Positions 27,373-49,008 of a DNA stretch of 64,000 nucleotides are shown one piece after another. A program made the translations under genes and the position numbers. The stretch's first letter is position 1. The number at the start of each line of letters is the position of its first letter. The notes under the pieces were generated by a model. The model was not told the DNA's origin, searched no databases, and was given only the letters and a program-made list of their open reading frames with translations. The stretch covers positions 7,527 to 71,526 of the forward strand of contig JAEYAU010000092.1 of assembly GCA_023404705.1 (NCBI GenBank). Reading direction: 5' to 3'. This DNA is from Pseudomonadota bacterium (lineage in GTDB: Bacteria > Pseudomonadota > Alphaproteobacteria > Rhizobiales > Xanthobacteraceae).

Positions 27373-27432
27373 GGAGATGCGCGTGCCATTCGCGGCTTAA
27401 TCATGCATCGATGCATCGGAGCGCGCCGCATC

Positions 27433-30952: not shown

Positions 30953-30967
30953 ATACGGGAGCGGATC

Positions 30968-31714: not shown

Positions 31715-31724
31715 GGAGATCTCC

Positions 31725-34089: not shown

Positions 34090-35198
34090 CTGCCGAGCGT
34101 GGCGGTCGGCGAGGCGAGGGCGGCTTGCGGCAGCGGATATTGCGCGCTCGCCCGGATGCCGAGCCTGGCCGCGTGCATGGTGGCGATCGTCAGCACGAGG
34201 ATCGCGCCTCCCTGGTGCAGAAGCGCCAGCGAGATCGGCACCATGTAGAGCAGCGTGAGAATGCCGAGTGCGGCCTGCAGCGTCATCGCCAGGGCGAGTG
34301 CGAGCGCGCCGGCGGTCACCCGCGCGCTGGCGCGGCTGCGCAGGGCGTCCGCCGCATGCAGCAGGGCCGCGAACCACAGCAGATAGGCCATCATGCGGTG
34401 ATTGAACTGCACGGTGAGCACGTTCTCGAACAGATTTCGCCAGGCGGGCTCATGCATCAGGAGCTCAGAGGCCGGCGGCAGCAGATCGCCGTCCATCAGC
34501 GGCCAGGTGTTGTAGATGAGGCCCGCGTCGAGACCGGCGACCAGCGCCCCGAGATAGATCTGCAGCAGCACAAGCCCGAGCAGCACGACGGCGCTCACGC
34601 GTAAGCGGTCCGGAGCCCGTGACGGCCTCGAAGGCGTCATGCTTTGCGCGGTCCAGACGAGGGCCGTGAAGATCACGCAGGCGATCGTCAGATGCACGGC
34701 GAGCCGATACTGCGAGACGTCGACCCGGTGGGCCAGGCCGGAGGCGACCATCCACCAGCCGATCCCCCCCTGCAGAGCGCCGAGCGCGAAGATGCCCCAG
34801 AGCCGGCCCTTCAGACCCGGCCCGATCCAGCCCTTCCAGAGGAAGAAGAGAAACGGGAGCAGGAAGGCCGCGCCGATCGAGCGCCCGAGCAGCCGGTGTC
34901 CCCATTCCCACCAGAAGATCACCTTGAACTCGTCGAGCGTCATCCGCGCGTTCACCTTCTCGAACTGCGGGATGGTCTTGTACTTGTCGAACTCCGCCTG
35001 CCAGGCCGACTCGCTCAGCGGCGGCAGGGTGCCGGTGATCGGCTTCCATTCGACGATGGAAAGGCCGGATTCCGTGAGGCGGGTCGCGCCGCCGACCAGC
35101 ACGATGGCGAAGACCAGCGCGGCGACAACATAGAGCCACAGTCTGACGACGCGGCGGGAGGTCTCGGTTGGCTCGCTCATCTCAGGATCCTGCGACAT
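34086..35198 (-). CDS. ctaA: heme A synthase (COX15/CtaA)
   Basis: [18 protein letters not shown]..., [15 protein letters not shown] and QFNHRMMAY are COX15/CtaA hallmarks. The start is 35198 or 35180. Confidence 0.85.
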
Positions 35199-35261
35199 GG
35201 CACGGGCACATCGTAGGAATGTTGCCGGGCAAGCTCGTTGATGTAGCGCAAGTTCCCGGGG

Positions 35262-35696
35262 CTAGAATTGCTGCCTGGCCACGGGCATCGACTGCTCCGC
35301 CGCGGCGTTGATGATCAGCACGGCGATCTGGTCCATGCTGTCGATGTGCCCGCGAACGATCGGCGGCAATGCGCGGCGCAGAATGCTGCGCGCGGTCCGC
35401 GGCTTGCGCTCAGATTGGGCCAGCGCCTCGTCGCAGATCGCGATCATCTCGTCATGCTCCTGCCGATGGCAGCGGCAAAAGGCGGTGCCCGCGGCCTCGA
35501 CCAGCGCGGCCTCGTTCTCGAAATGCGTCCGCATCACCTTACGCAGCCGCGCGATGCGCAACGGCAGTGCGATGGGCGCACTGTGCATCACGCTCGCCCA
35601 GGCCTCGGCGATCGCGAAGTGATCGACGTCGATCGCGGTATGGCCCAGAGCGTGGCGCGGACCGATCAAGGGGCGCGCCGTCGTGACAGTCGACAT
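35262..35696 (-). CDS. hemerythrin-like metal-binding protein
   Basis: The ATG at 35696 follows GGAGAT. Motifs are GHTAIDVDHFAI, THFENEAALVE, HRQEHDEMI and RGHIDSMD, the bacteriohemerythrin pattern. Confidence 0.65.
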   Translation of the reverse strand: MSTVTTARPLIGPRHALGHTAIDVDHFAIAEAWASVMHSAPIALPLRIARLRKVMRTHFENEAALVEAAGTAFCRCHRQEHDEMIAICDEALAQSERKPRTARSILRRALPPIVRGHIDSMDQIAVLIINAAAEQSMPVARQQF

Positions 35697-35747
35697 GGGA
35701 TCTCCGATCCAGGGGCAGGACGCTGGCATGGCCTCGCGCCCCGCGGC

Positions 35748-35761
35748 CTAACCGAAATCAA
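35748..35761. promoter_or_regulatory. FNR-type box (minus strand TTGAT-ttcg-GTTAG)
   Basis: It is centred 58 nt upstream of the hemerythrin ATG at 35696 and shares ACCGAAATCAAGG with the boxes at 27.3 kb. Confidence 0.45.
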
Positions 35762-35786
35762 GGCGGTGTGCCCGCCGGCTCGGCTG

Positions 35787-36533
35787 TCAGGGCGTCGGCG
35801 GCAGATCCGGCCCGTTTCCTCCGGCGAGCTCCTCCAGCACGCGAGCGTCGGCGATATCCAGCTTGCGGCCTCGCACCGTCACGCCGAGGCCGCTGAGGCG
35901 GGCGAGCTCGCGCGACAGGGTCTCGGGCGCCATCGCGAGCCGTGCCGCGAGCACCGCCTTGTCATAGGGAAGCTGGATCGGCCCGCGGACCTCGCGATGC
36001 ATCGCGAGAATCCATCCAACCAGCCGTTGGAAGCTGGTGCGTGCGCGCAGGTTCTTCACCTCCCGCAGCAGGTCGTCCCAGCGCGCCGCGAGGTGCCGGT
36101 TCACGAAATCAGCGAATTCCCGCTCGGTCGCGAACAGCCTGCGGGCATCCGCGAGGCCGATGCGGCCCACGCAGGTTCTCTGCAGAACTCGCGCCGAGGT
36201 GAGCAGCGGTCCATCGCGGCAGATCGCGTCGACCGGCAGCAGAGTCGGTGCACGCTGGATGGTCAGCGTGATCTGCCGGCCCTCTGCGCTCGTGAAGATC
36301 TGGACGAGTCCTTCCAGCACCAGGAACAATGACTCGGCGGGCTCGCCTTCGCGGAGCAGCAGGCTACGCGCCGGGGCCTGCTCGATCGACGTTACGGCCA
36401 GAAGTGCATCAACCACCTTCGGTGACAAGGCGGCCAGCATCGGGCTGGCGCGGACCAGTTCGGACTTGCAATGCTCGGACGGACCGATGGGCGGTCCCGC
36501 GGCACTACGCATGAGGTGGAATCCGCGATCCAT
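35787..36533 (-). CDS. Crp/Fnr family transcriptional regulator (no N-terminal Cys cluster)
   Basis: It has a cNMP-binding-like domain (LLLREGEPAESLFLVLEGLVQIF) and an HTH with the E--SR recognition motif (MAPETLSRELARL). The start is uncertain: 36533, 36512 or 36440. Confidence 0.75.
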   Translation of the reverse strand: MDRGFHLMRSAAGPPIGPSEHCKSELVRASPMLAALSPKVVDALLAVTSIEQAPARSLLLREGEPAESLFLVLEGLVQIFTSAEGRQITLTIQRAPTLLPVDAICRDGPLLTSARVLQRTCVGRIGLADARRLFATEREFADFVNRHLAARWDDLLREVKNLRARTSFQRLVGWILAMHREVRGPIQLPYDKAVLAARLAMAPETLSRELARLSGLGVTVRGRKLDIADARVLEELAGGNGPDLPPTP

Positions 36534-36635
36534 GGTCCCTGGAAGTGGTGCTGGTAGGCAATATGCCCGTGCCGCGGCGTCACACGCTTGACCGCGGTCA
36601 ATCGCAATGCACGTCGGAGGCGGTCGGTGGCGAGT

Positions 36636-36649
36636 TTGACCTAGATCAA
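36636..36649. promoter_or_regulatory. FNR-type box TTGAC-ctag-ATCAA between the two divergent Crp/Fnr genes
   Basis: It has one mismatch to the consensus and is centred 90 nt from the 36733 ATG and about 110 nt from the 36533 ATG. Confidence 0.55.
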
Positions 36650-36732
36650 CGAATGCGTTGTCACGCCGCCTATATTGCGATGACCTGGGGGAAAGCGTGA
36701 ACCGCCCCCGAAGCGCGATCGAGAGAGCATTC

Positions 36733-37512
36733 ATGACCCGACGCGTCGAGCATTCTTCGAGTGTCCCGACACCCGTGGACCTGGCCGTCGTCTCCCGGAT
36801 CGCGGTGTTCCGTGGTTTGAAGCCGGATACGATCCAGCGGATCGTGGCCCCCGCGACGGTCGCGACACTGCGCGAACGTGAGGTGCTGTTCCGGCAGGGC
36901 GATCCCGCGGCGGCCTTCTTCATCGTCGTGGAAGGCTGGGTGAAGCTCTATCGGATCACGCTTTCGGGCGAGGAGACCGTGATTCACGTCCTCACCAAGG
37001 GCGACAGCTTCGCCGAGGCGGTCGCGTTCACGGGAGCCTCCTATCCGGCCACCGCCGAAGCGGTGAGCGACGCTCGCGTCGTGCGTATCCCGGCCGACCA
37101 CGTGGTGCGCTGCATCCGCGAGATGCCGGACATCGCGCTCGCCATGATCGCCTCCACCTCGCAGCATCTGCACCACCTGGTGCAACAGGTCGAGCAGCTC
37201 AAGGCGCAGAGCGGCGTGCAGCGCGTGGCGGAGTTCCTCGCCGGGCTCTGTCCCGCCGAGCAGGGCTCCGGCACGATCGCGCTGCCTTACGACAAGGTGC
37301 TGATCGCCGCGCGCCTCGGTCTCAAACCCGAATCGCTGTCGCGCGCCTTCGCCAAGCTGAGATCGTTCGGGGTCGACGTGCGGGCCTCGCATGTCGCGGT
37401 GCGCGACATCGCCAAGCTGCGGCAACTCGCGGCGGACGATCGCGGCGCGATCCGCGGCACGCTGCGGCTTCCCCAGCGCTCCGCCGAGCCGCTTGCGGCG
37501 CGTGGATCCTGA
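36733..37512 (+). CDS. Crp/Fnr family transcriptional regulator, FixK-like (no Cys cluster)
   Basis: The ATG at 36733 follows GAGAGAG. Motifs are VLFRQGDPAAAFFIVVEGWVKLYR and an HTH with LKPESLSRAFAKL (E--SR). Confidence 0.8.
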   Translation: MTRRVEHSSSVPTPVDLAVVSRIAVFRGLKPDTIQRIVAPATVATLREREVLFRQGDPAAAFFIVVEGWVKLYRITLSGEETVIHVLTKGDSFAEAVAFTGASYPATAEAVSDARVVRIPADHVVRCIREMPDIALAMIASTSQHLHHLVQQVEQLKAQSGVQRVAEFLAGLCPAEQGSGTIALPYDKVLIAARLGLKPESLSRAFAKLRSFGVDVRASHVAVRDIAKLRQLAADDRGAIRGTLRLPQRSAEPLAARGS

Positions 37513-37548: not shown

Positions 37549-37935
37549 TCACTTCTTCTTTCCGTCTGCGCCATACTGCGCCAGGAAGGACCAGAGGTCA
37601 TCGGCCTCCTTTTCGTTCTTGATGCCCGCAAAGACCATCTTGGTGCCCGGAATCTTCGCCTTCGGGTCCTTGATGTATTCCTTGAAGCTCGCTTCGTTCC
37701 AGGTGATGCCCGAGTTCTTGTTGGCATCCGTGTAGTTGTAGTTCGCGACGGTGCCGGACTTGCGGTCTTGGAGGCCGTTGAGAATCGGCCCGACCTTGTT
37801 CTTGGCGGTCTCGCCGACATCGTGGCACGCCGAGCACTTCTTGAACGACGTGGCCCCGGCGGTCACGTCGCCCGCGAGGGCCGTGGCGGCCGAGGCCACC
37901 AGCGCGAACGAAACGGTTGCTGCAATCTTGAACAT
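37549..37935 (-). CDS. class I c-type cytochrome (c2/c550-like), signal peptide
   Basis: MFKIAATVSFALVASAATALA signal peptide, heme motif CSACH and distal Met region GTKMVFAG. The RBS is GGAGAAGG. Confidence 0.85.
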   Translation of the reverse strand: MFKIAATVSFALVASAATALAGDVTAGATSFKKCSACHDVGETAKNKVGPILNGLQDRKSGTVANYNYTDANKNSGITWNEASFKEYIKDPKAKIPGTKMVFAGIKNEKEADDLWSFLAQYGADGKKK

Positions 37936-37971
37936 CTCTTTGCCTTCTCCTCTTGCTTGACGGTGAAACGG

Positions 37972-38376
37972 TCAGTGCGGGTGCGCGCCGAGCTTCTTGT
38001 GCAGGCGCGCGTCATGAGTCTCGAAGTGCCGCGCGAACCAGGCTTCGAGCCGGGTCGCGAGCGTGTCGCTGTCGAGCACCTCGGCATCCGCGAAGTCGTC
38101 CATGATGTCGCGGATCTCGTCAAGCAGACGCTCGTGGTCGGTCTTGTGCTGCGTGAGCTGATCATAGCTTCGCTCGCGCATGAAGCGCTCCTCGAGCGCG
38201 AAATGCATCGAGATGCCCTTGAACAGGTCGCCGAAAAACGCCTCCACCCGGATCTTCTCGTTCTTTCCGGCGAGCTCGTCATAGAGCCGGTTGATGAGCT
38301 CGATCAGCTCCTGATGCTCGTGATCGACCGCTTCGATCCCGACGCTGTACTGGGGCTTCCATTGCAGCAGTGGCAT
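37972..38376 (-). CDS. bacteriohemerythrin
   Basis: MPLLQWKPQYSVGIEAVDHEHQELIELIN..., HFALEERFM, HKTDHERLL and FARHFETHDARL. The ATG is at 38376. Confidence 0.8.
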   Translation of the reverse strand: MPLLQWKPQYSVGIEAVDHEHQELIELINRLYDELAGKNEKIRVEAFFGDLFKGISMHFALEERFMRERSYDQLTQHKTDHERLLDEIRDIMDDFADAEVLDSDTLATRLEAWFARHFETHDARLHKKLGAHPH

Positions 38377-38447
38377 GAGACCCTCGGGTCCTTTGGTTGA
38401 CGCATGTTCTTGCCGGCCGACCGGTGGCCGCTTCGGCGGAACATGCG

Positions 38448-38951
38448 CTAGCGAAAGATGAACTCGCCGCTCTCTGCGCGGAAATCGATCACGAAAAGCT
38501 GGTCCGGAACAAGAGCGACGCGGCCGGCGCGCTGGTGGTCGAAGCCTTCCTGGCGCGGCGTGTCGCGCATGCGCACCGCGATCTCGTGGGCGCCGGCCGG
38601 CACCACGAAGCGCTCGTAGACGCGCGAGGGCCCGTCGCCCGCGATGCCGGTGGGCGGCAGCGCGGCGCGCAGCACCGACTTGCCGTCGATGTCGAGCTCG
38701 ACATGCAGCGGGCGGCGGCCGCGCGGGCACTCCTCGACGCGGCGCATGTTGGGCGGCAGCTTGGCGATCTCGGCGGGTGAGAGGCGCCGGCATTCGGCCT
38801 TGCGGTCGGCGCCGTGCACGAAGGTGAGCATGACGATCGCCGTGTCGGGCGGCGTCTGCCGGTAGACGGGGCGGTTAGCGAAGGCCGTTACGCCCGCGAA
38901 CAGTGCGAGGATGATGAGGAACTGGGCGAGCGTGCGCGCCATACCGATCAT
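38448..38951 (-). CDS. hypothetical membrane-anchored protein
   Basis: It has an N-terminal TM (LAQFLIILALFAGVTAF) followed by a ~140-aa soluble part. The ATG overlaps the stop of the upstream cytochrome b fusion (ATGA). Codons are GC3-rich. Confidence 0.55.
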   Translation of the reverse strand: MIGMARTLAQFLIILALFAGVTAFANRPVYRQTPPDTAIVMLTFVHGADRKAECRRLSPAEIAKLPPNMRRVEECPRGRRPLHVELDIDGKSVLRAALPPTGIAGDGPSRVYERFVVPAGAHEIAVRMRDTPRQEGFDHQRAGRVALVPDQLFVIDFRAESGEFIFR

Positions 38952-40540
38952 GGCGCGGTTCCTTCCGGCACGCGTTGCGGGGCGCTCGCCGGGGCGGGCG
39001 CGACCGAGGGCCGCGACTTGTGCATGACCGGCGGCGGCAGGGCCGCGACCTCTGCCGTGAAGGCGGCGCGCTCGCGCTCGAAGCGGGCGATCTCCAGGGC
39101 GGAGGCCCAGATCGTCTTCAGCCGCTCGCGCGGCACGCGGGCGCGCAAATAAGGATCGCGCGTTCCGGCGAAGCGCTGCTCGGTCCAGGCGACGCCGAGC
39201 CGGTTGTAACAGGCGCTCTCCGAGCAGCCCGCGACCACCACGCCCTCGGCGAGCTTGCGGCTGAGCACGTAGTCGATCATCGAGGGCGGCACCATGGCGA
39301 CGCAGGGGACCGGCACGACACCATCGGTGCCGCCGGCGCCGCCGCCGTGCTCACAGGCGAACACCAGCGCGCGGGCAGGGCCGGTGAGCTGGTCGGACGC
39401 TGCATGGGTGCGCTCGCGCAGCTCGCGCAGCGAATATTCCGGCAGGTCGATGCCGGTCTTGAGCTCCGCGGTGCGTCGGAACGGCGTCGAGGAGGGGCAG
39501 GAGCCGGTGCAGATGCCGCAGGAGACGCAGAGCGAGGGATTGACCTGGGCTTCCGTCGGGAAGGGCAGGTCATCGCTGCGCTTCACCATGCGGATCGCCT
39601 CGTAGGGGCAATCCTCGGCGCAGCGTCCGCAGCCGTTGCAGTGCTCGAGCGTGACCTCGGCGGCTTTAGCTCGCCGCAGCGGCGGCAGCCAGGGCATGAG
39701 ACCGAGCATGACCGAGAAGGCGGCGAGGAAGCCCCAGACCGCGCCTTTGCCCCAGAGATCCGTGAGCGGGTAGAGCGGCAGGAAGAACCAGTCGAGTCCG
39801 ACCTCGACGGGTGCGCGCGCGAGATCGACCTGGCCTTGCGAGAGCGCGGGCTTCCACAGCGAGACCGCGACCAGCGCGGCGAGCGTCATCAGCGCGAGCG
39901 CGCGCGGCGGATTCACCTTCGGGCGCGAGATGCGCAGGATGTGCACCCACATGATGAACAGCAGGAACAGCGGCACCGCGATGTGCATGAACACCATGAG
40001 GCTGAAGAAGCGGCTGGTGAGCGTGCCGGTGGCGACGAAATTACGCGCGATCGGCTCGCCGAAGATCGGCAGCCAGTCGAGCAGCTCGGAGGTGACGAGG
40101 GCGACGTACTGGGCGAGCTTGTCCCAGACCAGCCAATAGCCCGTGATGCCCGAGGCATAGAGCAGCCAGATGATCGGCAGGCCGGTGAGCCAGGAGAAGA
40201 AGCGGGCGCCGCGGTAATGGTCGTAGGCGAACTCGCGCAACAGATGCGTCACCACCATCACGACCATCAGGTCGGAGGCGTAGCGGTGCAGGCTGCGCAT
40301 CACGCCGGCGTGGAACCAGTAGTTCCGGCTGATGGTCTCGACCGACTGATAGGCCTGCTCGATGCCGGTATCGAAGAAGATGAACAGATAGATGCCGGTG
40401 ACCGCGACCACCCAGAAGAAGAAGAAGCCGAGCGCGCCGAGCTGCGCCAGCGGATTGAGGGCGGGGCCGAACAGGCGTTCGAACGGCCGTTCGATCGCCT
40501 CGAAGCCGTAGCGGAGGACCTTGCGTAGGAAAGCGATCAC
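38948..40540 (-). CDS. fusion protein: dihaem cytochrome b (N-terminal domain type) + 2x[4Fe-4S] ferredoxin + MvhD/FlpD-like domain
   Basis: Two H-x13-H pairs lie in TM helices (LHRYASDLMVVMVVTH and MHIAVPLFLLFIMWVH). The ferredoxin motifs are CNGCGRCAEDCP and CVSCGICTGSCP. The C-terminus is ALVFACEHGG...PCVAMV...VVVAGCSESACYNRLG. I prefer the GTG at 40540, which is preceded by GGAGA. The ORF track's longest start (GTG 40594) would overlap senC by 29 nt. Confidence 0.72.
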   Translation of the reverse strand: MIAFLRKVLRYGFEAIERPFERLFGPALNPLAQLGALGFFFFWVVAVTGIYLFIFFDTGIEQAYQSVETISRNYWFHAGVMRSLHRYASDLMVVMVVTHLLREFAYDHYRGARFFSWLTGLPIIWLLYASGITGYWLVWDKLAQYVALVTSELLDWLPIFGEPIARNFVATGTLTSRFFSLMVFMHIAVPLFLLFIMWVHILRISRPKVNPPRALALMTLAALVAVSLWKPALSQGQVDLARAPVEVGLDWFFLPLYPLTDLWGKGAVWGFLAAFSVMLGLMPWLPPLRRAKAAEVTLEHCNGCGRCAEDCPYEAIRMVKRSDDLPFPTEAQVNPSLCVSCGICTGSCPSSTPFRRTAELKTGIDLPEYSLRELRERTHAASDQLTGPARALVFACEHGGGAGGTDGVVPVPCVAMVPPSMIDYVLSRKLAEGVVVAGCSESACYNRLGVAWTEQRFAGTRDPYLRARVPRERLKTIWASALEIARFERERAAFTAEVAALPPPVMHKSRPSVAPAPASAPQRVPEGTAP

Positions 40541-40565
40541 CTGTGTCTCCGGTGCGATGCGGGGG

Positions 40566-41375
40566 TCATGCGGCGCCTCGCGCGCGCCCGGCACGTCGCC
40601 ATTCGCGCAGGAGCAGGCCGCCCATCAGCAAGAGGGAAATGGCCGCGATCACGCTGCCGAACGTCAGGCCGTAGTCGATGCGGTAGCGCCCCAATCCCGG
40701 ATCGTAGATCGTGCAGATGAACTTGATGCGGTCGATCAAGCCGTTGAACGTGAAGCTTGTCGTGGTGCCGTAGACCACGTCCTTGAGCGGCTCCATGAAC
40801 ATCTGGATGGGGAAATCCTCGCCGTAGACGTGGCGATAGATCCTGCCGTCGCGATCGAGGATCGTGGTCTGCGTCACGTGGTCGAAGCCGCCGGCGGCGG
40901 TCGCATAGCTGAAGCCGAGCTCGCGCAGCAGCACCGCGATGGTCGCGGGATCGCCGCTCGCGAGGCGCCAGTTGTCGAAGCGCACGCCCTGGGCGGACGC
41001 GAACTGGGTGAGACGGGCCGGCGTGTCGTTGCGGGCGTCGAAGCCGATGGTGAGGACAGTGAACTGATCGGCGCCGAACATGCGGCGCGCCTCGCCGACC
41101 GCGTCGATCAGGTGCTGGGTCGTGACCGGGCAGACCGAGGCGCACGCCGTGTAGACGAGGCTGATCACCAGCGGCTTGCCGCGCAGGCTGTCGAGCCGCA
41201 GGGGCGCGCCCTTCTGGTCGGTCAAGACGTGGTTGCCGAGGGTGCGGCCGATGGCGGCCTGGCTGCGCTCGACGGCCTGACGCGGATCGAGGCGCGCCTC
41301 GCGCGGCTCCGCCGCGTACGCAATGCCGGCGAGCCCGAGAACGAGCCCGGCCGCGACCGCGAGTGCGCGTGTCAT
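40566..41375 (-). CDS. senC: SCO1/SenC family copper chaperone with extra C-terminal TM extension
   Basis: It has a signal peptide MTRALAVAAGLVLGLAGIAYA, a thioredoxin fold with CASVCP and a downstream His (GFDHVTQTT), and a C-terminal hydrophobic tail FGSVIAAISLLLMGGLLL. The ATG overlaps the ctaB stop (ATGA). Confidence 0.78.
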   Translation of the reverse strand: MTRALAVAAGLVLGLAGIAYAAEPREARLDPRQAVERSQAAIGRTLGNHVLTDQKGAPLRLDSLRGKPLVISLVYTACASVCPVTTQHLIDAVGEARRMFGADQFTVLTIGFDARNDTPARLTQFASAQGVRFDNWRLASGDPATIAVLLRELGFSYATAAGGFDHVTQTTILDRDGRIYRHVYGEDFPIQMFMEPLKDVVYGTTTSFTFNGLIDRIKFICTIYDPGLGRYRIDYGLTFGSVIAAISLLLMGGLLLREWRRAGRARGAA

Positions 41376-42244
41376 GGCCGGGTCCCGAAGATCCCGTCGA
41401 GCACGACGCCGAGCACCAGCAATGCGAGCTGCAGCAGGGAGGCGAAGAAGTTCGCCATGGCGTTCTGCTTGGTCGGTGCGCGGTGCAACTGGATGCTCTT
41501 CCAGAGGAAGAATGCGCCGCCGCTCGCGGCGCCGAGGCCATAGAGCGCGCCGAGGCCGTACCAGAGCGGCACCAGCGAGATTGCGGTCAGCGCGGCCGTG
41601 TGGCTGAGCACCGCCGATGTCCAGGCGCGCGCCGGCACCACGATCGGCAGCATCGGCACGCCTGCCTTGGCATAGTCCTCGCCCTTCGCGGCGGCCAAGC
41701 TCCAGAAGTGCGGCGGCGTCCACAGGAACAGCACGACGGCGAGGACCACCGGCACGAGCTGCGGCGCCGGGTCGACGGCCGCCGCGCCGGCCAGCACCGC
41801 GAAGCTGCCGGCGAGTCCGCCGACCACGATGTTCCAGGTGCTGCGGCGCTTCAGCCACACCGTGTAGACGATGCCGTACGTGAAGGCGCCGAGAAAGACG
41901 AAAGCGGCCGCCATGCCGCCGCCGACCGCCCAGGCGAGGGCGAGGGAGGCTGCGAGCAGCGCGAGGAAGGCGGCGAGCCACCAGGGACTCGCCGCAAAGG
42001 CGCCGCTCGCGAAGGGACGCGACTTCGTCCGCCGCATGTGACGGTCGAGGTCGCGGTCATAGTAGTGATTGAAGGCGCCGGCTGCGCCGGACGCGCCGAG
42101 CACGGCGAGCGACAGGCCGAGCGCCTGCCACCAGGTCGGGGCAGGGCCGCTTGTCGCTGCCATGCCAGCGAGCGCGCTCGCCGCGATCGCTATTCCGATC
42201 CTGAGCTTCAGGAGCGAAACCGTCATGCGGACCGCGGCGAGCAT
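41372..42244 (-). CDS. ctaB: protoheme IX farnesyltransferase (heme O synthase)
   Basis: UbiA family motifs NHYYDRDLDRHMRRTKSRP and WTPPHFWSLA. The RBS is GGAGAAG. Confidence 0.85.
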   Translation of the reverse strand: MLAAVRMTVSLLKLRIGIAIAASALAGMAATSGPAPTWWQALGLSLAVLGASGAAGAFNHYYDRDLDRHMRRTKSRPFASGAFAASPWWLAAFLALLAASLALAWAVGGGMAAAFVFLGAFTYGIVYTVWLKRRSTWNIVVGGLAGSFAVLAGAAAVDPAPQLVPVVLAVVLFLWTPPHFWSLAAAKGEDYAKAGVPMLPIVVPARAWTSAVLSHTAALTAISLVPLWYGLGALYGLGAASGGAFFLWKSIQLHRAPTKQNAMANFFASLLQLALLVLGVVLDGIFGTRP

Positions 42245-42281
42245 TTGTCTTCTCCGTCATCAATCGGGGGTGCAGGAAAGA

Positions 42282-44003
42282 TCAGCGGAACAGCCAGAGT
42301 TCCGAGAGATATTTCCAGTTGATGAAGTAGTAGAGGACGAACGACACGAAGAAGATGGTGACGAGCACGATCGTGCCCGGCAGCTTCACCGTGGCGTGGC
42401 TCCCGTAGTGCGAGGCGGCGGCGCCGCCGCCCTGATGGAGCGGGAAGGTGAGCTTGTGCCCGGCCGTGATCTTCTTGCCGAACAGCACGGTGCCGACCAC
42501 CACCACCACGTAGATGACGCCGCCCGCCGCCGCGAGGATCGCGAACACGCCGTTCAGTCCCATCATCAGGAAGGCGCCGGCCGAGTGCGCGAAGGAGATC
42601 GTCGCGTCACTGAAGGTGATGTCCCAGTGACGGCGTGGCACGCCGAGGGTGCCCGCGCCCATCATGAACATCGAGATGCCGGCGGCGCCGATGCCGAACA
42701 CATAGGGCTGCAGCTTGGCGAGCTTCGGCCACACGATCTCGCGCTGGAAGATCAAGGGGAGCACCAGGTAGGTGCCGCCCATGAAGGCGAGCGTGGTGCC
42801 GGCGACGACCGTGCCGTGGAAGTGGCCCGGCACGTAGATCGTGTTGTGCATCAGCACGTTGAGCTGCTCGGTGCCGAGCACCACGCCGGAGATGCCGCCG
42901 ATGAAGCCGAACATCACGAGCGAGAGGAACATGGCCGCGAAGGCCGGGTTGCCCCACGGTGCCTTGCGCAGCCACTCGAACACGCCCTTGGTGTAGCCGT
43001 TCTTGCGCTGGGCGGCTTCGATCGCGCCCGGCACGGTGAGGCCGTGGATCATCGATCCGAGCACCGCGAGATACATCATGTAGCTGGTATTGACGATCTT
43101 CCAGCTCGCCGTCATGCCGGGCTCGGCGAGCAGGTGATGCGCCGAGGCGAGCTGCAGGAACAGGATGTAGAGGAAGAACGCGGTGCGGCTCACCTTCTCG
43201 GAGAGCGGCTTGGCGCCGAGCAGCAGGGCCACCGTGAGATACCAGATCGAGACATGCGCCGAGACGTTGATCTGTTGCGACGAGTGACCCATCGCCCACC
43301 AGACGACCTTGTACATCAGCGGGTCGATGTCGCCGATCCATCCGAGCGACCAGAGCCAGGTCGGGATCAGGATGATGGCGCCGGACGCGATGGTGAAGAC
43401 TGCGATGATCGCGGCCGTCAGCGCGCCGAAGGTCACGAGCGGCATGGAGCCCTGATAGGTCTGCTCCTCCTTGGCGACCGCGAGGGTCGCGAAGAAGATG
43501 CCGACACCGATCAGCGCGCCGACGGCGAACAGGATCAGCCCCAGATAGAAGTTGGATTTCGCCATCATCGGCGGATAGGACGTGAACATCACGCTCGATT
43601 CGCCGCGCAGCACCTCGACATTGGTGAGCACGGCACCCACCACCATCAGCACGAAGCCGAGCCAGGCGATCTTCGGTGCGGGCAGGCGGCAGTTGAGCAG
43701 GACCGCGGAGGCGAAGTAGAGCACCGCGATCTCGAAGAAGATGATCCAGAACAGCAGCACATTGGCGCCGTGTCCGGTGAGCACGAGGTAGAACCACTCG
43801 GCCGGCAGCAGGTGAACGGCCGGCCAGCGTGTGAGCGCGACCAGCAGGCCCATGAGGCCGCCGAGCGCCAGGAAGATCACGGCCGCGACCGCATTGGCCT
43901 TGATCAGCGCTTGCGCCGCGGCGTCGACTTTGAGTCCCGTGTAGGGACAGGTGCGGAAATCCGCGGCTCTGCCGCCGACACCGACGATGGTTTCAGCAGT
44001 CAT
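42282..44003 (-). CDS. heme-copper oxidase superfamily subunit I, B-family-like, lacking the cross-link Tyr (candidate NO reductase-type enzyme)
   Basis: LTGHGANVLLF (low-spin heme His), WWAMGHSSQQ (CuB His, with Gln where A/B-family oxidases have Tyr at His+4), LASAHHLL (CuB His pair) and PGHFHGTVV (heme His pair). Confidence 0.82.
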   Translation of the reverse strand: MTAETIVGVGGRAADFRTCPYTGLKVDAAAQALIKANAVAAVIFLALGGLMGLLVALTRWPAVHLLPAEWFYLVLTGHGANVLLFWIIFFEIAVLYFASAVLLNCRLPAPKIAWLGFVLMVVGAVLTNVEVLRGESSVMFTSYPPMMAKSNFYLGLILFAVGALIGVGIFFATLAVAKEEQTYQGSMPLVTFGALTAAIIAVFTIASGAIILIPTWLWSLGWIGDIDPLMYKVVWWAMGHSSQQINVSAHVSIWYLTVALLLGAKPLSEKVSRTAFFLYILFLQLASAHHLLAEPGMTASWKIVNTSYMMYLAVLGSMIHGLTVPGAIEAAQRKNGYTKGVFEWLRKAPWGNPAFAAMFLSLVMFGFIGGISGVVLGTEQLNVLMHNTIYVPGHFHGTVVAGTTLAFMGGTYLVLPLIFQREIVWPKLAKLQPYVFGIGAAGISMFMMGAGTLGVPRRHWDITFSDATISFAHSAGAFLMMGLNGVFAILAAAGGVIYVVVVVGTVLFGKKITAGHKLTFPLHQGGGAAASHYGSHATVKLPGTIVLVTIFFVSFVLYYFINWKYLSELWLFR

Positions 44004-44006
44004 ATC

Positions 44007-44582
44007 TTATCTCCCATCGGCGAGGCGTTCGCCGGCCTCGGCCCGCTTCGGTTCCGTGACGTAGATCTTGCCGGTCATCGTGTGATGACCGATCCCGCAG
44101 AACTCGTTGCAGACGATCCCGAACTCGCCGGACTCCGTCGGCGTCAGGGTGATCACGTGCTCGTAGCCGGGATGGACCTGGATGTTGATGTTGGTCGGCT
44201 GCAGCGAGAAGCCGTGCTGCCAGTCGATCGAGGAGAGATGGAAGCGATAGCTCTTGCCCTTCTCGAGCTCGAGAATCGGCCACCAGTTCCACAGCCGGCC
44301 CAGCATGTAGACGTCGGTATTGGCGGGCGGCTTGACCACCGGCACGCCCTTTTCCTCGCGTACCGTGTACTTCTTGGTGAATTCCTCGACCTTCGTCTCA
44401 TAGCGCGAAGGCGCGATGCGATAGGCCTCGCGGCTCAGATTCTGGCCACCGATGAAGTGCCAGGCGATCATGAAGCCGAACATGAACAGGCCCCAGAGAA
44501 AGGCGATGACCGTCCAGGTCAGCTCGACTCTCTCGATGGGTTCGTTCCACCAGACTCGTTGTTCGGGTGGTGTGACGGCCAT
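44007..44582 (-). CDS. heme-copper oxidase subunit II with intact CuA site
   Basis: It has one N-terminal TM and a cupredoxin domain with WQHGF...CNEFCGIGHHTM (H, C, C, H and M ligands). Its stop lies 3 nt before the subunit I ATG. Confidence 0.82.
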   Translation of the reverse strand: MAVTPPEQRVWWNEPIERVELTWTVIAFLWGLFMFGFMIAWHFIGGQNLSREAYRIAPSRYETKVEEFTKKYTVREEKGVPVVKPPANTDVYMLGRLWNWWPILELEKGKSYRFHLSSIDWQHGFSLQPTNINIQVHPGYEHVITLTPTESGEFGIVCNEFCGIGHHTMTGKIYVTEPKRAEAGERLADGR

Positions 44583-44619
44583 TGCGGTCCCCCGTCGTGC
44601 GATGAAAGGAAGGGTGTGA

Positions 44620-44784
44620 TCAGTTCGCGAGCGGGATGGATGCGACTTCCATCACGCCCCAGAGGATGTAGAGGACCGTCGGAATGGTGACGCCGACGAA
44701 GAGCAGCAGGAACGGATTGTCGAGAATCTGCTGCATCATGGGGATGCGCGCTTGCGTCTGGTCCGTCGGATTTGGCGTCGTCAT
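44620..44784 (-). CDS. small single-TM protein (possible accessory oxidase subunit)
   Basis: ATG at 44784 (MTTPNPTDQTQARIPMMQQILDNPFLLLFVGVTIPTVLYILWGV...). It is the first gene of the operon. The RBS is AGAGGGG. Confidence 0.45.
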   Translation of the reverse strand: MTTPNPTDQTQARIPMMQQILDNPFLLLFVGVTIPTVLYILWGVMEVASIPLAN

Positions 44785-44844
44785 GGGCAGCCCCTCTGGT
44801 GGCGAATGACTGCCGAAAAATATGTCCGTGTCGCACGGGTAGGT

Positions 44845-44858
44845 TTGACTATGGTCAA
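44845..44858. promoter_or_regulatory. palindromic FNR/Dnr/NnrR-type box TTGAC-tatg-GTCAA
   Basis: A perfect dyad centred 67 nt upstream of the 44784 ATG, the first gene of the oxidase operon. It lies in the divergent region shared with the 44893 gene. Confidence 0.5.
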
Positions 44859-44892
44859 GGTTTGTGCGGTGCACGCATAAATAATCAACAGC

Positions 44893-45354
44893 ATGCGTAT
44901 TTCACCCGAACCGTTTTGGATGAAACCATTCGGGGCGATGTCGCCGCGCTTGCGCTGGAGCGCTGCCGGTCTCTCGGCGGTAGTCGCGCTCGCGCTCGCG
45001 AGCGTTGCGCTGTGGCCGATTCCGGCGAAACCGAAGGAGCTTCTGCTGCTCTATGTCGGCGCCGAGGACTGCGCGCCGTGCCGAGCCTGGCAAAAAGGCG
45101 AGGGCGCGCAATTCCGCGCCACGTCCGAGTTCGCGCGCGTGCCCTATCGCGAGGTGAAGTCGGCGACCTTGCGCGATCTGCTCAAGGACGAGAACTGGCC
45201 GGAGGATCTGCGGATCTACCGCGATCAGCTCGGTGCCGGCGCGGGCGTGCCGATGTGGCTCGTCATTGCCGACAATCGAATCATCGAACGCAGCTTCGGC
45301 GAAAGCCAATGGCGAACGAACACATTGCCGAAGGTCAGGGCGCTGCTGCGCTGA
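44893..45354 (+). CDS. membrane-anchored thioredoxin-fold protein with CxxC (CAPC)
   Basis: Signal anchor LSAVVALALASVALW followed by LLLLYVGAEDCAPCRAW. The start is uncertain: 44893, 44920 or 44938. Confidence 0.5.
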   Translation: MRISPEPFWMKPFGAMSPRLRWSAAGLSAVVALALASVALWPIPAKPKELLLLYVGAEDCAPCRAWQKGEGAQFRATSEFARVPYREVKSATLRDLLKDENWPEDLRIYRDQLGAGAGVPMWLVIADNRIIERSFGESQWRTNTLPKVRALLR

Positions 45355-45565: not shown

Positions 45566-48127
45566 TCACAACTGCAGGCGGCGCCGCCAGAGCGGCTTGA
45601 TCAGCTCGAGGATCAGCAAGAGTGCGAGCCCGGCACCGAGGGTGAGCGCGAGATCATCGTGATGCAACGGGCCGAACCGGAACAGAGTGCTCGCCGCGGG
45701 CCAGACCAGCGTCAGGCCGAGGGTCGTGGCGACCACCAGCAGGATCAACGCGAGGATGGGATTCGGACGTCTGAATGCCGCCAGCAGTGACGTGCTGAAG
45801 GAGCGGTTGATCAGAATAAGACTGACGATGCAGACCACGAGAGAGAAGAAGGTGATCGCGCGCGCCTCGTCCGGCGGCATGCCGCGCGCGAGCGCCACGA
45901 CATAGATCGCCGCGCACAGGGCAAAGGCCAGCGCGCCTTGCAGGACACTCCAGGCGATCAGCGGCCAGGAAAAGAGCGGCTCGTCAGGCGGGCGAGGCGG
46001 ACGGTTCATGACGTCCGCTTCTTCGGTCTCGGCTTCGAAAACCAGCGTGCACACCGGGTCGATCACCATCTCGAGAAACGCGATATGAATCGGACCGAAG
46101 ATGATAGGCAGTCCGAACACGAGCGGCAGAAGGGCGAGGCCGGCGATCGGCACATGCACCGCGAAGATGAATGCCATGGCCTTGCGCAGATTGTCGTAGA
46201 TGCGACGGCCGAGGCGCACCGCGGTCACAATCGATCCAAAATCGTCGTCGAGCAGAACGATGGCGGAGGCCTCGCGCGCCACGTCGGTCCCGCGGCCACC
46301 CATGGCCACGCCGATGTGGGCGGCCTTGAGGGATGGCGCGTCGTTCACGCCGTCGCCCGTCATGGCGACGATATCGCCTCGGCCCTTCAGGGCCTGAACG
46401 ATGCGCAGCTTCTGCTCCGGCATGATGCGCGCGAACACGCTGGTGCGTCCGGCACGGCGCGCAAGCTCGCCGTCGGATAGAGCCTCCACATCCTCCCCGG
46501 TCACGACCTCGGCGGCATCGATCCCGGCCTCGGCCGCAATGGCGCGCGCGGTGGCCGGATAGTCCCCGGTGATCATCACGACGCGGATGCCGGCGGAACG
46601 GCATTCGCGAACGGCCGCGGGCACACTTGGCCGCAACGGATCGGCAAGCCCGACAAGACCGAGAAAGTCGAAACGAAAGCCAAGGGGCGACGCGGGAAGG
46701 CTCTCGCCCACATGGGTCGCCTTCGCCACGGCCAGCACACGTAACCCTTCGCGGGCCATGGCATCGACGGCGTGATGCATCGCGTCTGTGGCGGCACTGT
46801 CGAGACCGCAAAGTCGCGCAATGCTCTCCGGCGCCCCCTTGCTTGCAATCGCCAAGCCGGACTCGTTGTCGTCTCCCTTCCAGGCATGCGTCACGGCGAG
46901 GAGTTCGGGCCGAAGACCGTACCCGTGCACGAGCTTCCATTGAGAATCCAGTGCTCGCGCGGACCCAAGCCCGTCGCGCGCGAAGGCATGAAAGGCCTTC
47001 TCCATCGGATCGAACGGCTCGGGGGCGCTTGCCAGCAAGCCATAAGTGGCCAGCTCGTGGAACGGGCCGGGAATGCCCGCCGCCATGCCGTCGCGGGACC
47101 GGAAGACATTGCCGTCCGGCAGCCGGAGCTCCACGATCGACATCCGGTTTTCGGTGAGGGTGCCGGTCTTGTCCGTGCAGAGCACGGTGGCAGAGCCGAG
47201 CGTCTCGATCGACGCGGCGCGTCGCGTCAGCACGCGTGCGCGCGATATTCGCCAGGCGCCCATCGCCATGAACACGGTCAGCACGACCGGAAATTCCTCC
47301 GGCAGCATCGACATGCCAATGGCGATGCCCGCAAGGAGCGCTTCCAGCCAGCCGCCGCGCAACGTGCAGTAGAGGACGATTGCGACCAGGCTCACGGCCG
47401 CGCCTCCAAGGGCGGCAAGCCGCACCAGGCGCCTGGTCTGGAGCTGCAGCCGCGGCGGCTCCGCTTCAAGCCCGTGAAGCGATTGCCCGATCTTGCCGAT
47501 CTCACTGCGCGCGCCTGTCGACAGGACCTCGGCGAGGCCGCTTCCCCGCACGACCAATGATCCCGAATAGACGAACGGCAAGTCATCGCCGCCAGGCCGC
47601 GCCGGGCCGGCCGGCAGGGTCGTGGCCGCAACCTTGCGGACAGGCACCGATTCTCCGGTGAGCAGGGATTCATCCACTTGGACGTCGTGGCTCTCGCGCA
47701 GCGCGGCATCGGCAGGAACCCGGTCGCCCTCGGAAAGGACCACGAGGTCGCCGCGCACCACCTCGCGGCCGGGGATGCGCTTGCGCTCCCCATCGCGAAC
47801 CACCAGGGCACGCGGGCTTGTGAGATCTCGGAGCGCCTCGAGCACCCGTTCGGTGCGCGTCTCTTGCACGACCGTGATCGCGACCGACAGCATCGCGAAG
47901 GTGAGGAGGATCAGCGATTCCTTGAGGTCGCCGAGCAGGAGATAGATGAGCCCTGCGCCGAGCAGGAGGAGGAGCATCGGCTCGCGCAAGACCTCCAGGA
48001 CGATCCGCAGCGCCGTGCGCCGGTCGGCTCGCGGCAACTCATTGAAGCCCTCGGATTTGAGGCGCAGCTCGGCCTCGGCCACGCTGAGGCCGAGCCTGTT
48101 CGGGGGCGCGTCCTCGTCATTGCTCAT
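45566..48127 (-). CDS. cation-transporting P-type ATPase (P2-type, Ca2+/Mg2+-like)
   Basis: An 853-aa protein with TGESVPV, CTDKTGTLTEN, MITGD and TGDGVNDAPSLK. The ATG overlaps the FNT gene stop (ATGA). Confidence 0.88.
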   Translation of the reverse strand: MSNDEDAPPNRLGLSVAEAELRLKSEGFNELPRADRRTALRIVLEVLREPMLLLLLGAGLIYLLLGDLKESLILLTFAMLSVAITVVQETRTERVLEALRDLTSPRALVVRDGERKRIPGREVVRGDLVVLSEGDRVPADAALRESHDVQVDESLLTGESVPVRKVAATTLPAGPARPGGDDLPFVYSGSLVVRGSGLAEVLSTGARSEIGKIGQSLHGLEAEPPRLQLQTRRLVRLAALGGAAVSLVAIVLYCTLRGGWLEALLAGIAIGMSMLPEEFPVVLTVFMAMGAWRISRARVLTRRAASIETLGSATVLCTDKTGTLTENRMSIVELRLPDGNVFRSRDGMAAGIPGPFHELATYGLLASAPEPFDPMEKAFHAFARDGLGSARALDSQWKLVHGYGLRPELLAVTHAWKGDDNESGLAIASKGAPESIARLCGLDSAATDAMHHAVDAMAREGLRVLAVAKATHVGESLPASPLGFRFDFLGLVGLADPLRPSVPAAVRECRSAGIRVVMITGDYPATARAIAAEAGIDAAEVVTGEDVEALSDGELARRAGRTSVFARIMPEQKLRIVQALKGRGDIVAMTGDGVNDAPSLKAAHIGVAMGGRGTDVAREASAIVLLDDDFGSIVTAVRLGRRIYDNLRKAMAFIFAVHVPIAGLALLPLVFGLPIIFGPIHIAFLEMVIDPVCTLVFEAETEEADVMNRPPRPPDEPLFSWPLIAWSVLQGALAFALCAAIYVVALARGMPPDEARAITFFSLVVCIVSLILINRSFSTSLLAAFRRPNPILALILLVVATTLGLTLVWPAASTLFRFGPLHHDDLALTLGAGLALLLILELIKPLWRRRLQL

Positions 48128-49008
48128 GCGTCGGAAGGCGTCCGGCTCGGGCTGGGTCGGAGGTAGACAAACCAGTAGACGACGCCGACAAGGACACCGC
48201 CACCCACAACATTACCGATCGTCACCGGGATCAAGCTCCAGAAGAATGCGGGCCAGCTCAGATCAGCCACATGGGCAGTCGAGACCGAGCCCAGGGCGCT
48301 CGGTCCCCAATCCCTGATCATCATGCCGAGCGGTATGAGGTACATGTTCGCCACCGAGTGCTCAAATCCGGCGGCGACAAACGCTGCGACCGGAAACAGA
48401 ACCGCGAGCACCTTGTCGGCGGTCGTGCGCGCGCCGATGGACAGCCAGACCGCGAGGCAGACTAGAACATTGCAGAGGATGCCCAGGAAGAATGCCCGGC
48501 CGAATGGAAGGGCGGCTTTGGAGGACGCGATCGATACGGCGATCTCGGCGACGACACCATCACCCGACAAGTGCTGACCCGAAAGGAAGACGAGGACCGC
48601 GGTTCCGAACGCGCCGACAAAGTTGCCGACATAGACGATGAGCCATGCCCGCAGCATTTCCAGGCCGGTGATCTTGCGCGCAGCCAAGGCCATGACCATC
48701 AGTGTGTTGCCGGTGAACAATTCGGCTCCGCCGACAACCACCAGGATCAGCCCCAGCGAGAACACGAGCCCGGCGAAGAGTCGCGTGATGCCGAACGGAA
48801 GCACCCCATCGGCGCCGGCCATGACGGTGGTGGCGAACATCGCTCCAAGGCCGATGAACGCCCCCGCCAACATCGACAGAACGACAAGTCTCGAGAGGTC
48901 CAGGCGCGCCTTTTGGGCGCCGATCGTCTCTGCCTTCTGCGCGATCTCGGCCGGAAGAAGCGCATCGATCACGAAGCGTGGTTCTGGAGGGCGCATATTC
49001 TCATCCAT
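48124..49008 (-). CDS. formate/nitrite transporter (FNT) family channel
   Basis: GAELFTGN, FFLGILCNVLVCLAVW and AAGFEHSVANMY are FNT signatures. The substrate cannot be told from the sequence alone. Confidence 0.85.
   Translation of the reverse strand: MDENMRPPEPRFVIDALLPAEIAQKAETIGAQKARLDLSRLVVLSMLAGAFIGLGAMFATTVMAGADGVLPFGITRLFAGLVFSLGLILVVVGGAELFTGNTLMVMALAARKITGLEMLRAWLIVYVGNFVGAFGTAVLVFLSGQHLSGDGVVAEIAVSIASSKAALPFGRAFFLGILCNVLVCLAVWLSIGARTTADKVLAVLFPVAAFVAAGFEHSVANMYLIPLGMMIRDWGPSALGSVSTAHVADLSWPAFFWSLIPVTIGNVVGGGVLVGVVYWFVYLRPSPSRTPSDA

Follow-up and report, generated by a model that had tools for sequence, protein, structure and literature searches.

Introduction

The eNOR of Rhodothermus marinus, a nitric oxide (NO) reductase, turns over NO at 0.68 per second, showed no O2 reduction whatever the donor tested, has its two sites occupied by a modified haem a (As) and is made only under micro-oxic conditions (Murali et al. 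2024). The same study reported that many eNOR operons carry ctaA, that the low-spin haem is ligated by His and Lys in some eNORs, and that a 'K' family of O2 reductases groups beside eNOR. The Magnetospirillum 'cytochrome a1-like' haemoprotein belongs to the eNOR family, and the alphaproteobacterial form, with Sco in its operon, was earlier named 'ba3-a1' (Degli Esposti). A preprint on Ferrigenium calls the operon order eNOR II, eNOR I, haem O synthase, sco1 and 'scaffold' protein 'a very common observation', terms the cytochrome b-[Fe-S] genes 'rather unusual' and reports expression under denitrifying and micro-oxic conditions (bioRxiv 10.64898/2026.01.22.701106). Here we analyze a nine-gene operon on a 64,000-nucleotide stretch (the window) of contig JAEYAU010000092.1, from an uncultured Xanthobacteraceae bacterium related to Bradyrhizobium and Pseudolabrys, and we put the probability that this locus encodes an eNOR-family NO reductase, together with genes to build it and feed it electrons, at roughly 0.8 on the evidence of its sequence.

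The families of this superfamily are told apart by the residue at the position of the cross-link Tyr, which is Y in oxidases, E in cNOR and qNOR, N in sNOR and CuANOR/bNOR, Q in eNOR and D in gNOR (PMC8756737 Table A4, modified from Hemp & Gennis 2008), and Gln at this position has served as the inclusion criterion for eNOR (PMC8756737 section 2.7.1). The equivalent of ba3 Ser309 is kept in B1, eNOR and bNOR and missing in sNOR, which has a conserved Glu elsewhere in the channel region (Murali et al. 2024, PMC11214002). The sNOR enzymes form a separate clade in published trees and are without biochemical characterization.

Placement of the catalytic subunits

Subunit I finds its closest solved structures in the B-family ba3 oxidases of Thermus (1e-42), with its best A-family match, the aa3-600 quinol oxidase 6kob, at 8e-9, and no cNOR or qNOR structure was found among its PDB matches at E<=0.001. 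All six canonical His residues are present (H78, H240, H289, H290, H394 and H396). Because the alignment to ba3 is gapless from the CuB His to the end of helix VI, where GHPIVY becomes GHSSQQ and H233 pairs with H240, the position of the cross-link Tyr237 can be assigned to Gln244, and Gln stands there in all nine clade members compared. Subunit II aligns to the T. thermophilus ba3 subunit II at 1.5e-15 and keeps all the CuA ligands (H...CxxxCxxxHxxM), confirming the atypical, Tyr-less and CuA-containing haem-copper enzyme that the initial annotation of this stretch had described. Two other assignments were rejected: a cNOR or qNOR by the CuA cupredoxin in subunit II and by a residue other than Glu at the Tyr position, and a B-family O2 reductase by the missing helix VI GHPxVY motif, the bona fide B-family sequences in the same alignment all reading V-Y-x-W.

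Several further positions set the clade of the window protein apart from ba3. Glu91 in helix II is invariant in the clade, while the same position is Gln in ba3 and Ile or Ala in other B-family sequences; Ser317, the counterpart of ba3 Ser309, and His320, at the position of ba3 Thr312, are invariant as well, and other K-channel-like residues are Tyr255 (Y248 in ba3), Ser268 (S261) and Thr323 (T315). The clade also has Gln243 and Asn246 where ba3 has Val and Trp, Asn246 being invariant and two residues past the Tyr position. A search of 1.8 billion cluster representatives, combined with a motif table, resolved three groups, namely the true B family (GHPxVYFW), a Tyr-retaining group (GHxxQY[IV]N) and the window clade (GHxxQQ[IV]N), the last two of which have in common the invariant helix-II Glu and His320 as well as Gln243 and Asn246. 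Named members of the Tyr-retaining sister clade (P0128, P0133, P0134 and P0143) come from metagenome-assembled genomes (MAGs) of Hodarchaeales (Asgard) and Thermoproteota, and this clade may be the 'K' family reported to cluster with eNOR.

Identity to the window subunit I is 86% in Bradyrhizobium, 78% on a Defluviimonas plasmid, 55% in a relative from Myxococcota-type MAGs (P0121) and 45% on Thermus thermophilus megaplasmids, and the clade further holds Rhodothermales, Balneolaceae, Thermomicrobium roseum and a haloarchaeon. In a neighbour-joining tree that did not include the R. marinus enzyme, the window protein groups with Rhodothermales and Balneolaceae MAG sequences, the Thermus His/Lys variant and haloarchaeal sequences; the Thermus plasmid member reads GHFK where the others read GHFH, which places a Lys at the low-spin haem ligand. 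Searching proteins with a Rhodothermales MAG sequence as the query brought up Balneolaceae and Fodinibius, and a plasmid search returned relatives in Defluviimonas, Thermus and T. roseum, with a Brevibacillus plasmid match rejected as an ordinary B-family oxidase with GHPLVY.

We assign the enzyme to eNOR and not to sNOR because of the Gln at the Tyr position, the retained Ser309 equivalent, the His/Lys variant within the clade and a Tyr-retaining sister group that fits 'K', and subunit I is in all likelihood an eNOR-family NO reductase, an offshoot of the B-type haem-copper oxidases. The earlier proposal of a candidate NO reductase is thereby strengthened by eNOR-type residues, whereas the likening to sNOR did not hold, given Gln244 in place of Asn and the presence of Ser317. 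The 54-aa membrane protein encoded upstream of subunit II had no Pfam, NCBIfam or PDB sequence match, ba3 subunit IIa included; its motif DNP[FW]LLL-LG-P-YT-WG-E is kept across phyla, and it is probably a true third small subunit that may be likened to ba3 subunit IIa by gene order and topology.

Operon layout and promoter region

The nine open reading frames (ORFs), all on the minus strand, are tightly packed between 37549 and 44784 of the window (Table 1), and independent gene calls on European Nucleotide Archive (ENA) metagenome contigs with an identical subunit I and 100% identical flanking proteins give the same nine products, in agreement with the nine minus-strand genes, with gaps of 3 to 71 nt or overlaps, that had been described at the outset. 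Pfam profiles matched COX1 (4e-63), UbiA, SCO1-SenC, Cytochrome_B with two Fer4 and FlpD (MvhD-like), Hemerythrin and Cytochrom_C. The claim that the operon carries its own haem O synthase and Sco also stands, since the former scores 243 bits against TIGR01473 (cutoff 210) and the latter matches PF02630, and the Sco1/SenC protein has an N-terminal anchor, a CxxxC motif and a C-terminal transmembrane (TM) helix judging from sequence and hydropathy. A scan for terminators inside the operon found none that was convincing, and scanning for sigma-70 promoters and terminators had no decisive outcome.

Table 1. Coordinates of the putative eNOR operon, its promoter elements and adjoining genes in the window (distances calculated from the coordinates; negative values are overlaps)
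Feature	Coordinates	Strand	Product (aa)	Distance to next operon gene (nt)	Basis
FNR/FixK/Dnr-type dyad TTGAC-N4-GTCAA, TTGACTATGGTCAA	44845-44858	.			Pattern scan, perfect
Candidate -10 hexamer TATTTT	44817-44822	-			Direct reading; 22 nt past dyad
Small single-helix membrane protein	44620-44784	-	54	37	ENA gene call, conserved motif
Subunit II (putative eNOR)	44007-44582	-	191	3	One TM helix and CuA cupredoxin domain
Subunit I (putative eNOR)	42282-44003	-	573	37	COX1, six His, Gln244, Glu91
Haem O synthase (ctaB/cyoE)	41372-42244	-	290	-4	TIGR01473
Sco1/SenC copper chaperone	40566-41375	-	269	-29	PF02630, 8.7e-16
Cytochrome b-2x[4Fe-4S]-MvhD protein	38948-40594	-	548	-4	Pfam/NCBIfam domains, b6 alignment
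TM-anchored periplasmic beta-sandwich protein (predicted)	38448-38951	-	167	71	Fusion homologues, AlphaFold2 model
Cytoplasmic bacteriohemerythrin	37972-38376	-	134	36	NF033749
Exported mono-haem cytochrome c	37549-37935	-	128		PF00034, NF043008 below cutoff
Second Crp/Fnr regulator ORF	36658-37512	+			
Perfect FNR-type box	36636-36649	+			
Perfect FNR-type box	36588-36601	+			
Crp/Fnr regulator	35787-36479	-			Family match
Hemerythrin-like protein	35262-35729	-	155		Family match
ctaA	34086-35198	-			Family match
Divergent exported protein, CAPC motif	44920-45354	+	144		ENA gene call

The upstream end of the operon had been placed at 44874, and an ORF with a GTG start does exist there, but that frame reads through the dyad. 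Translation of the small gene almost certainly begins at the ATG at 44784, which is preceded by AGAGGGG and gives the 54-aa product, therefore placing the dyad 60 nt upstream of the start. The box first reported upstream of the operon is indeed a perfect dyad, lying midway in a divergent intergenic region of ~135 bp between the small gene and the ORF with the CxxC motif, and the window holds five matches to TTGAY-N4-RTCAA where 0.03 would be expected. Relative to the candidate -10 hexamer, the center of the dyad would fall near -41.5, a spacing that makes this, by its geometry, a candidate class II FNR-type promoter. A Hyphomicrobiaceae MAG (L089) has the identical box and Defluviimonas (L004) a related one upstream of the homologous operon, and versions with one or two mismatches are found in B. 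arachidis and in a Xanthobacteraceae MAG (L086). FNR/FixK-type boxes also control micro-oxic oxidases, as in the regulation of fixNOQP in Bradyrhizobium, so the original argument that an anaerobic-type box speaks against a conventional oxidase did not survive; the dyads support control that responds to low O2 or to NO, and by themselves would not separate an NO reductase from a micro-oxic oxidase.

Beyond the 3' end of the operon, the two perfect boxes at 36588 and 36636 sit between two divergent Crp/Fnr genes, the second of which (with its boxes spanning 36588-37512) is convergent with the operon and ends 36 nt from the cytochrome c stop codon. NCBIfam gave no FixK, NnrR/Dnr or FNR assignment for either regulator, only weak FtrB-like scores below cutoff. 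An imperfect box, TTGATGTAGCGCAA, at 35238-35251 lies directly upstream of ctaA, the last gene of the minus-strand group at 34086-36479. Two further perfect dyads were seen elsewhere in the window: TTGACCCCCGTCAA at 32947-32960, at the start of a 380-aa ORF (32947-34089, plus strand) that had no family match, and TTGATCCGGATCAA at 15432-15445, between an Rrf2 regulator gene (14985-15422) and an acyl-CoA dehydrogenase gene (15432-16733). Taken together, the five perfect dyads suggest a local low-oxygen regulon.

Conservation of the operon in other genomes

We examined gene neighborhoods in 80 species-level genome loci, the 80 best matches to the relative P0121, which come from Myxococcota, Verrucomicrobiota, Leptospiraceae, Bacteroidota, Planctomycetota, Nitrospirota, Gemmatimonadota, Rokubacteria and other groups and include no ammonia oxidizer and no R. 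marinus. The loci were screened by tblastn with the window proteins, and the denominators below count those with enough flanking sequence. Subunit II was present in 76/76 loci, the small TM protein in 51/70 and SenC in 54/67, while ctaB was found somewhere in the flanks of 24/34. The cytochrome b-FeS-MvhD gene lies downstream of subunit I in all 61 informative loci, across many phyla, and was not found at the Thermus and T. roseum loci. A nirS gene or a nirK-cytochrome c fusion, with the identity of nirK checked, occurs within 9 kb in 18 of the 80 loci; nirS and napA flank P0121 itself, and nirS and nirK flank the Thermus copy.

When the neighborhood check proposed for the nine-gene set was carried out, all nine genes were recovered in the same order in three complete Bradyrhizobium genomes. 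There, a Crp/Fnr regulator homologous to the second one of the window adjoins the operon upstream, along with the divergent CxxC ORF, and directly downstream lie apbE, a nosR-like gene, nirS and a gene with a TP_methylase domain (nirE-like). In two of these genomes (L003 and L090, at about 7500-7740) a gene for a small DUF1858 protein stands directly upstream of the Crp/Fnr regulator; it is not called in the third (L091) and is absent from the window. ScdA/YtfE-type iron-centre repair proteins likewise begin with a DUF1858 domain.

Two observations concern loci further away. On plasmid 4 of T. thermophilus TTHNAR1 (L005, NZ_LR027520.1 175603-177964), an eNOR-type set of small protein, subunit II and subunit I has as its neighbors on the NAR1 megaplasmid nirS, nirK and genes for a cytochrome P460 and an Rrf2 regulator. 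The subunit I of this set reads GHGAQQVN and carries the His-to-Lys change at the low-spin haem ligand; a review of the NAR1 strain states that the region is without NO reductase genes (PMC7694296). In many non-alphaproteobacterial loci (L006 5844-7337 and the equivalent positions in 22 of the 80 loci, e.g., L014 and L063), a second, very divergent haem-copper-superfamily paralogue of ~480-500 aa is encoded directly upstream of the small-II-I set. This paralogue lacks a subunit II partner, shares 23-29% identity with eNOR subunit I, has the motif GGGHVLQ and falls below the COX1 cutoff at 29.8 bits.

The cytochrome b-FeS protein and its beta-sandwich module

The 548-aa protein begins with b6-like helices that carry His pairs for two haems (103/117 and 204/218) and match spinach b6 at 2.5e-19, with helices E and F flanking a PEWY-like 'LDWF' loop. 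The LDWF loop is acidic, predicting a periplasmic side, and the D-E loop is rich in Lys and Arg, predicting a cytoplasmic side, so the FeS part is predicted to be cytoplasmic. This C-terminal part of 245 residues has the motif CxxCxxCxxxCP twice, as for two [4Fe-4S] clusters, and four more Cys in an FlpD/MvhD domain.

A region homologous to the 167-aa protein is fused in frame to the C-terminus of the cytochrome b-FeS-MvhD protein in 33 loci and forms a separate gene only in alphaproteobacterial loci; operon genes 6 and 7 therefore correspond to two halves of one protein found elsewhere. In the fused homologues, a TM helix after the FeS part is predicted to put the beta-sandwich in the periplasm. 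An AlphaFold2 model of the 167-aa protein shows a helix and a beta-sandwich (pLDDT 84.6), and a fold search with it against the PDB gave only generic beta-sandwich matches with TM-scores <0.4. His46, Cys54, Cys75 and His139 are kept among close relatives, and a metal or Rieske-like centre was considered and rejected, as across phyla the His residues vary and the Cys disappear as a pair. The joint presence or absence of Cys54 and Cys75 suggests a periplasmic disulfide rather than a metal site. The protein is possibly the eNOR 'scaffold protein' of the Ferrigenium preprint. No characterized protein with the whole architecture, from cytochrome b through 2x[4Fe-4S], MvhD and a TM helix to a periplasmic beta-sandwich, was found.

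Hemerythrin, cytochrome c and flanking genes

The bacteriohemerythrin scores 101 bits against NF033749 (cutoff 84). The cytochrome c has a signal peptide and a CSACH motif and matches the CycA c550 profile NF043008 at 204 bits, below the cutoff of 240; by sequence it is a paralogue of Bradyrhizobium CycA (c550) and a likely electron donor to CuA. Hemerythrin accompanies eNOR only in alphaproteobacterial loci (1/80 in the broad sample, plus Bradyrhizobium and Defluviimonas), and the cytochrome c gene is found in 0/80 loci of that sample and not at the Defluviimonas locus, but in all three Bradyrhizobium genomes. Both are thus alphaproteobacterial additions to the eNOR operon, and in the literature searched we found no description of either as a member of it.

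The hemerythrin-like protein encoded immediately upstream of ctaA stands at the Pfam hemerythrin threshold and below NCBIfam cutoffs, and the pairing of an O2-binding protein with the O2-dependent haem A synthase at 34086-35729 is suggestive. No ctaA was found within 10 kb of the eNOR operon in the three Bradyrhizobium loci. On the other side of the operon, the gene for the 144-aa CAPC protein keeps its position in the three Bradyrhizobium genomes and in L086; the protein had no family match and may be a thiol-disulfide oxidoreductase in Sco/CuA maturation. Upstream of the operon and on the same minus strand, a formate/nitrite transporter gene (FNT, NirC-like; 48124-49008) overlaps a gene for a type II P-type cation ATPase (45566-48127) by 4 nt (45566-49008 in all), and a nitrite transporter beside an NO reductase operon may have a functional link to it. 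Elsewhere in the window (7311-8636 and 27355-32621) there are genes for an HGD-D family dehydratase/reductase component, several AMP-dependent ligases, acyl-CoA dehydrogenases and an enoyl-CoA hydratase, suggesting anaerobic acyl-CoA or aromatic metabolism, which is consistent with a facultatively anaerobic host.

Proposed mechanism and alternatives

By analogy with the Rhodothermus enzyme, electrons would pass from a periplasmic cytochrome c to CuA, the low-spin haem and the haem/non-haem-metal site, where 2 NO + 2 H+ + 2 e- would give N2O + H2O without O2 reduction. Protons would come from the cytoplasm along a K-channel-like path of Ser317, His320, Thr323, Tyr255 and Ser268, and a path of this kind means that the eNOR may conserve energy. 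CtaB from the operon and CtaA from 2.3 kb away could supply the a-type (As) haem reported for eNOR, Sco/SenC, perhaps with the divergent CxxC protein, could load CuA, and the c550 paralogue would be a dedicated electron donor. From their anatomy and co-occurrence, the cytochrome b-FeS-MvhD protein and the beta-sandwich would form one membrane module that docks to the eNOR and either supplies it with electrons from the quinone pool (quinol) or from a donor in the cytoplasm, or has a part in cofactor maturation. The hemerythrin may buffer or sense O2 or NO, as haem A synthesis by CtaA needs O2 and the enzyme would work at very low O2, and a Crp/Fnr-family regulator may drive the class II-type promoter under micro-oxic or NO conditions.

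A broader proposal joins several of these elements, and we offer it tentatively, as rather less likely than its contrary. It holds that the protein made of a Qo-like cytochrome b, 2x[4Fe-4S], MvhD, a TM helix and a beta-sandwich is an obligatory partner of bacterial eNORs, split in two genes here. This partner could be a Rieske-less input module from the quinone pool or a cytoplasmic donor to eNOR, working as a supercomplex, or, as an alternative, it could provide the electrons needed in the maturation of haem A and Cu. In the alphaproteobacterial operon, the hemerythrin, together with the hemerythrin-like gene before ctaA, would collect the traces of O2 needed to make haem A in near-anoxic denitrifying cells. 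If true, the proposal would explain how denitrifying cells obtain, for one of their enzymes of denitrification, a cofactor whose synthesis needs O2.

Besides the diagnostic residues, the assignment to eNOR is supported by the nitrite reductase genes adjacent to it in many loci and by the enrichment and promoter geometry of the FNR boxes. Several points weigh against it: a single eNOR has been characterized so far and its turnover is low (0.68 NO per second); the placement rests on published diagnostic residues, taxon composition and operon content, with a tree that holds neither the R. marinus eNOR nor N. europaea NorY; haem type, active-site metal and co-transcription are predicted here from the genes; the neighborhood sample is biased to one query; and the 64-kb window contains no nitrite reductase gene.

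The best of the three alternatives, although very unlikely, is a high-affinity or specialized O2 reductase working under micro-oxia, as Sedlacek et al. argued for a related Tyr-less enzyme, the sNOR of N. europaea. The B-family ancestry and the retained K-channel-like path would fit such an enzyme, as would the general use of FNR/FixK boxes to control micro-oxic oxidases and the presence of ctaA and hemerythrin, which imply that O2 is available. However, the redox-active Tyr that is held necessary for four-electron O2 reduction has given way to Gln throughout the clade members examined, the one purified eNOR showed no O2 reduction with any donor tested, and the genes linked to it in genomes are nirS, nirK and nap rather than genes of aerobic functions.

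Alternatively, the core could be an eNOR while the cytochrome b-FeS, beta-sandwich, hemerythrin and cytochrome c genes are independent neighbors or separate transcripts. The gaps before hemerythrin (71 nt) and cytochrome c (36 nt) could hold promoters, these two genes are lineage-specific additions (1/80 and 0/80), and the Thermus and T. roseum loci lack the cytochrome b-FeS gene. We consider this very unlikely, since the cytochrome b-FeS gene follows subunit I in 61/61 informative loci and overlaps its neighbors by start and stop codons in the window, the beta-sandwich is fused to it in 33 loci, no convincing terminator lies within the operon, and the order of the nine genes is the same in three Bradyrhizobium genomes. 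Least probable, and given only a slight chance, is an sNOR-type enzyme (norSY-senC-orf1-like) as in ammonia oxidizers, which likewise combines a CuA subunit II, a Tyr-less subunit I and an adjacent senC and whose 'N' could be mimicked by the invariant Asn246 in another alignment register, but the ba3 alignment is gapless and puts Gln at the Tyr position, the Ser309 equivalent reported absent in sNOR is present, the taxa (Rhodothermales, haloarchaea, Thermus His/Lys) and the operon content (haem O synthase, 'scaffold', cytochrome b-FeS) fit eNOR descriptions, and the cluster of ammonia-oxidizing bacteria is described only as norS-norY-senC-orf1.

Significance

The eNOR family is widespread and routinely mis-annotated as cytochrome oxidase. 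Genomes of Bradyrhizobium, Pseudolabrys and other Xanthobacteraceae, as well as soil metagenomes, are rich in close homologues of the window subunit I (85-91% identity), invariably labelled 'cbb3-type cytochrome c oxidase subunit I', and surveys based on norB or KEGG would therefore miss NO-reducing capacity in a main lineage of soil denitrifiers. As the product of eNOR is N2O, a potent greenhouse gas, this would amount to a hidden N2O potential in soil Xanthobacteraceae, and in Bradyrhizobium the operon lies directly beside nirS. The cytochrome b-FeS-MvhD/beta-sandwich partner, strictly kept with eNOR across many phyla, offers a testable handle on electron or cofactor supply.

Comparison with known systems

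The locus resembles sNOR (norSY-senC-orf1; ammonia and nitrite oxidizers) in being Tyr-less, CuA-containing, B-related, adjacent to senC and a proposed NO reductase, and differs in having Gln where sNOR has Asn and in keeping the Ser309 equivalent reported missing there. With T. thermophilus ba3, the closest solved structure for both subunits, it has in common the order small-II-I, the six His and the CuA ligands, but ba3 has the His-Tyr cross-link (GHPIVY), reduces O2, lacks the helix-II Glu and carries Thr312 in place of His320. The 548-aa protein recalls both cytochrome b6/bc1 cytochrome b and the MvhD/HdrA2 C-terminal module, with four-His di-haem helices, a PEWY-like loop, two ferredoxin-type clusters and an MvhD/FlpD domain; unlike in cytochrome b6/bc1, no gene for a Rieske or cytochrome c1/f partner lies near it.

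The initial annotation had considered the extended system not to be described, which was not borne out for the core: an eNOR has been purified, the operon of II, I, haem O synthase, sco1 and 'scaffold' is published, and the alphaproteobacterial 'ba3-a1' has its name. The operon of Ferrigenium straubiae is alike in its eNOR II, eNOR I, haem O synthase, sco1, 'scaffold' and cytochrome b-[Fe-S] protein, so the haem O synthase within the operon and the cytochrome b-FeS genes are already described; no published description of the hemerythrin and cytochrome c additions was found in the literature searched. Ferrigenium also has a longer cytochrome b-FeS protein with FAD and NADH domains, and no hemerythrin or dedicated cytochrome c is reported there. 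The cytochrome b-FeS genes that the preprint calls 'rather unusual' contrast with their occurrence in 61/61 loci of the present sample. In the literature searched, no report of eNOR in Bradyrhizobium or its relatives, or in soil-type Xanthobacteraceae, was found.

Compared with the eNOR family as a whole, the locus has the same B-derived subunit I with Gln for Tyr, CuA subunit II, K-channel-like residues, haem O synthase, Sco and further protein, ctaA nearby and, in the loci of its relatives, a link to nitrite reductase genes. It differs in adding a bacteriohemerythrin and a c550-type cytochrome c, in encoding the beta-sandwich module as a separate gene and in its soil-type Xanthobacteraceae host. 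The eNOR family itself is thus known, and what is new here is its occurrence in a lineage where eNOR has not been discussed, in an operon that adds hemerythrin and a c550 paralogue.

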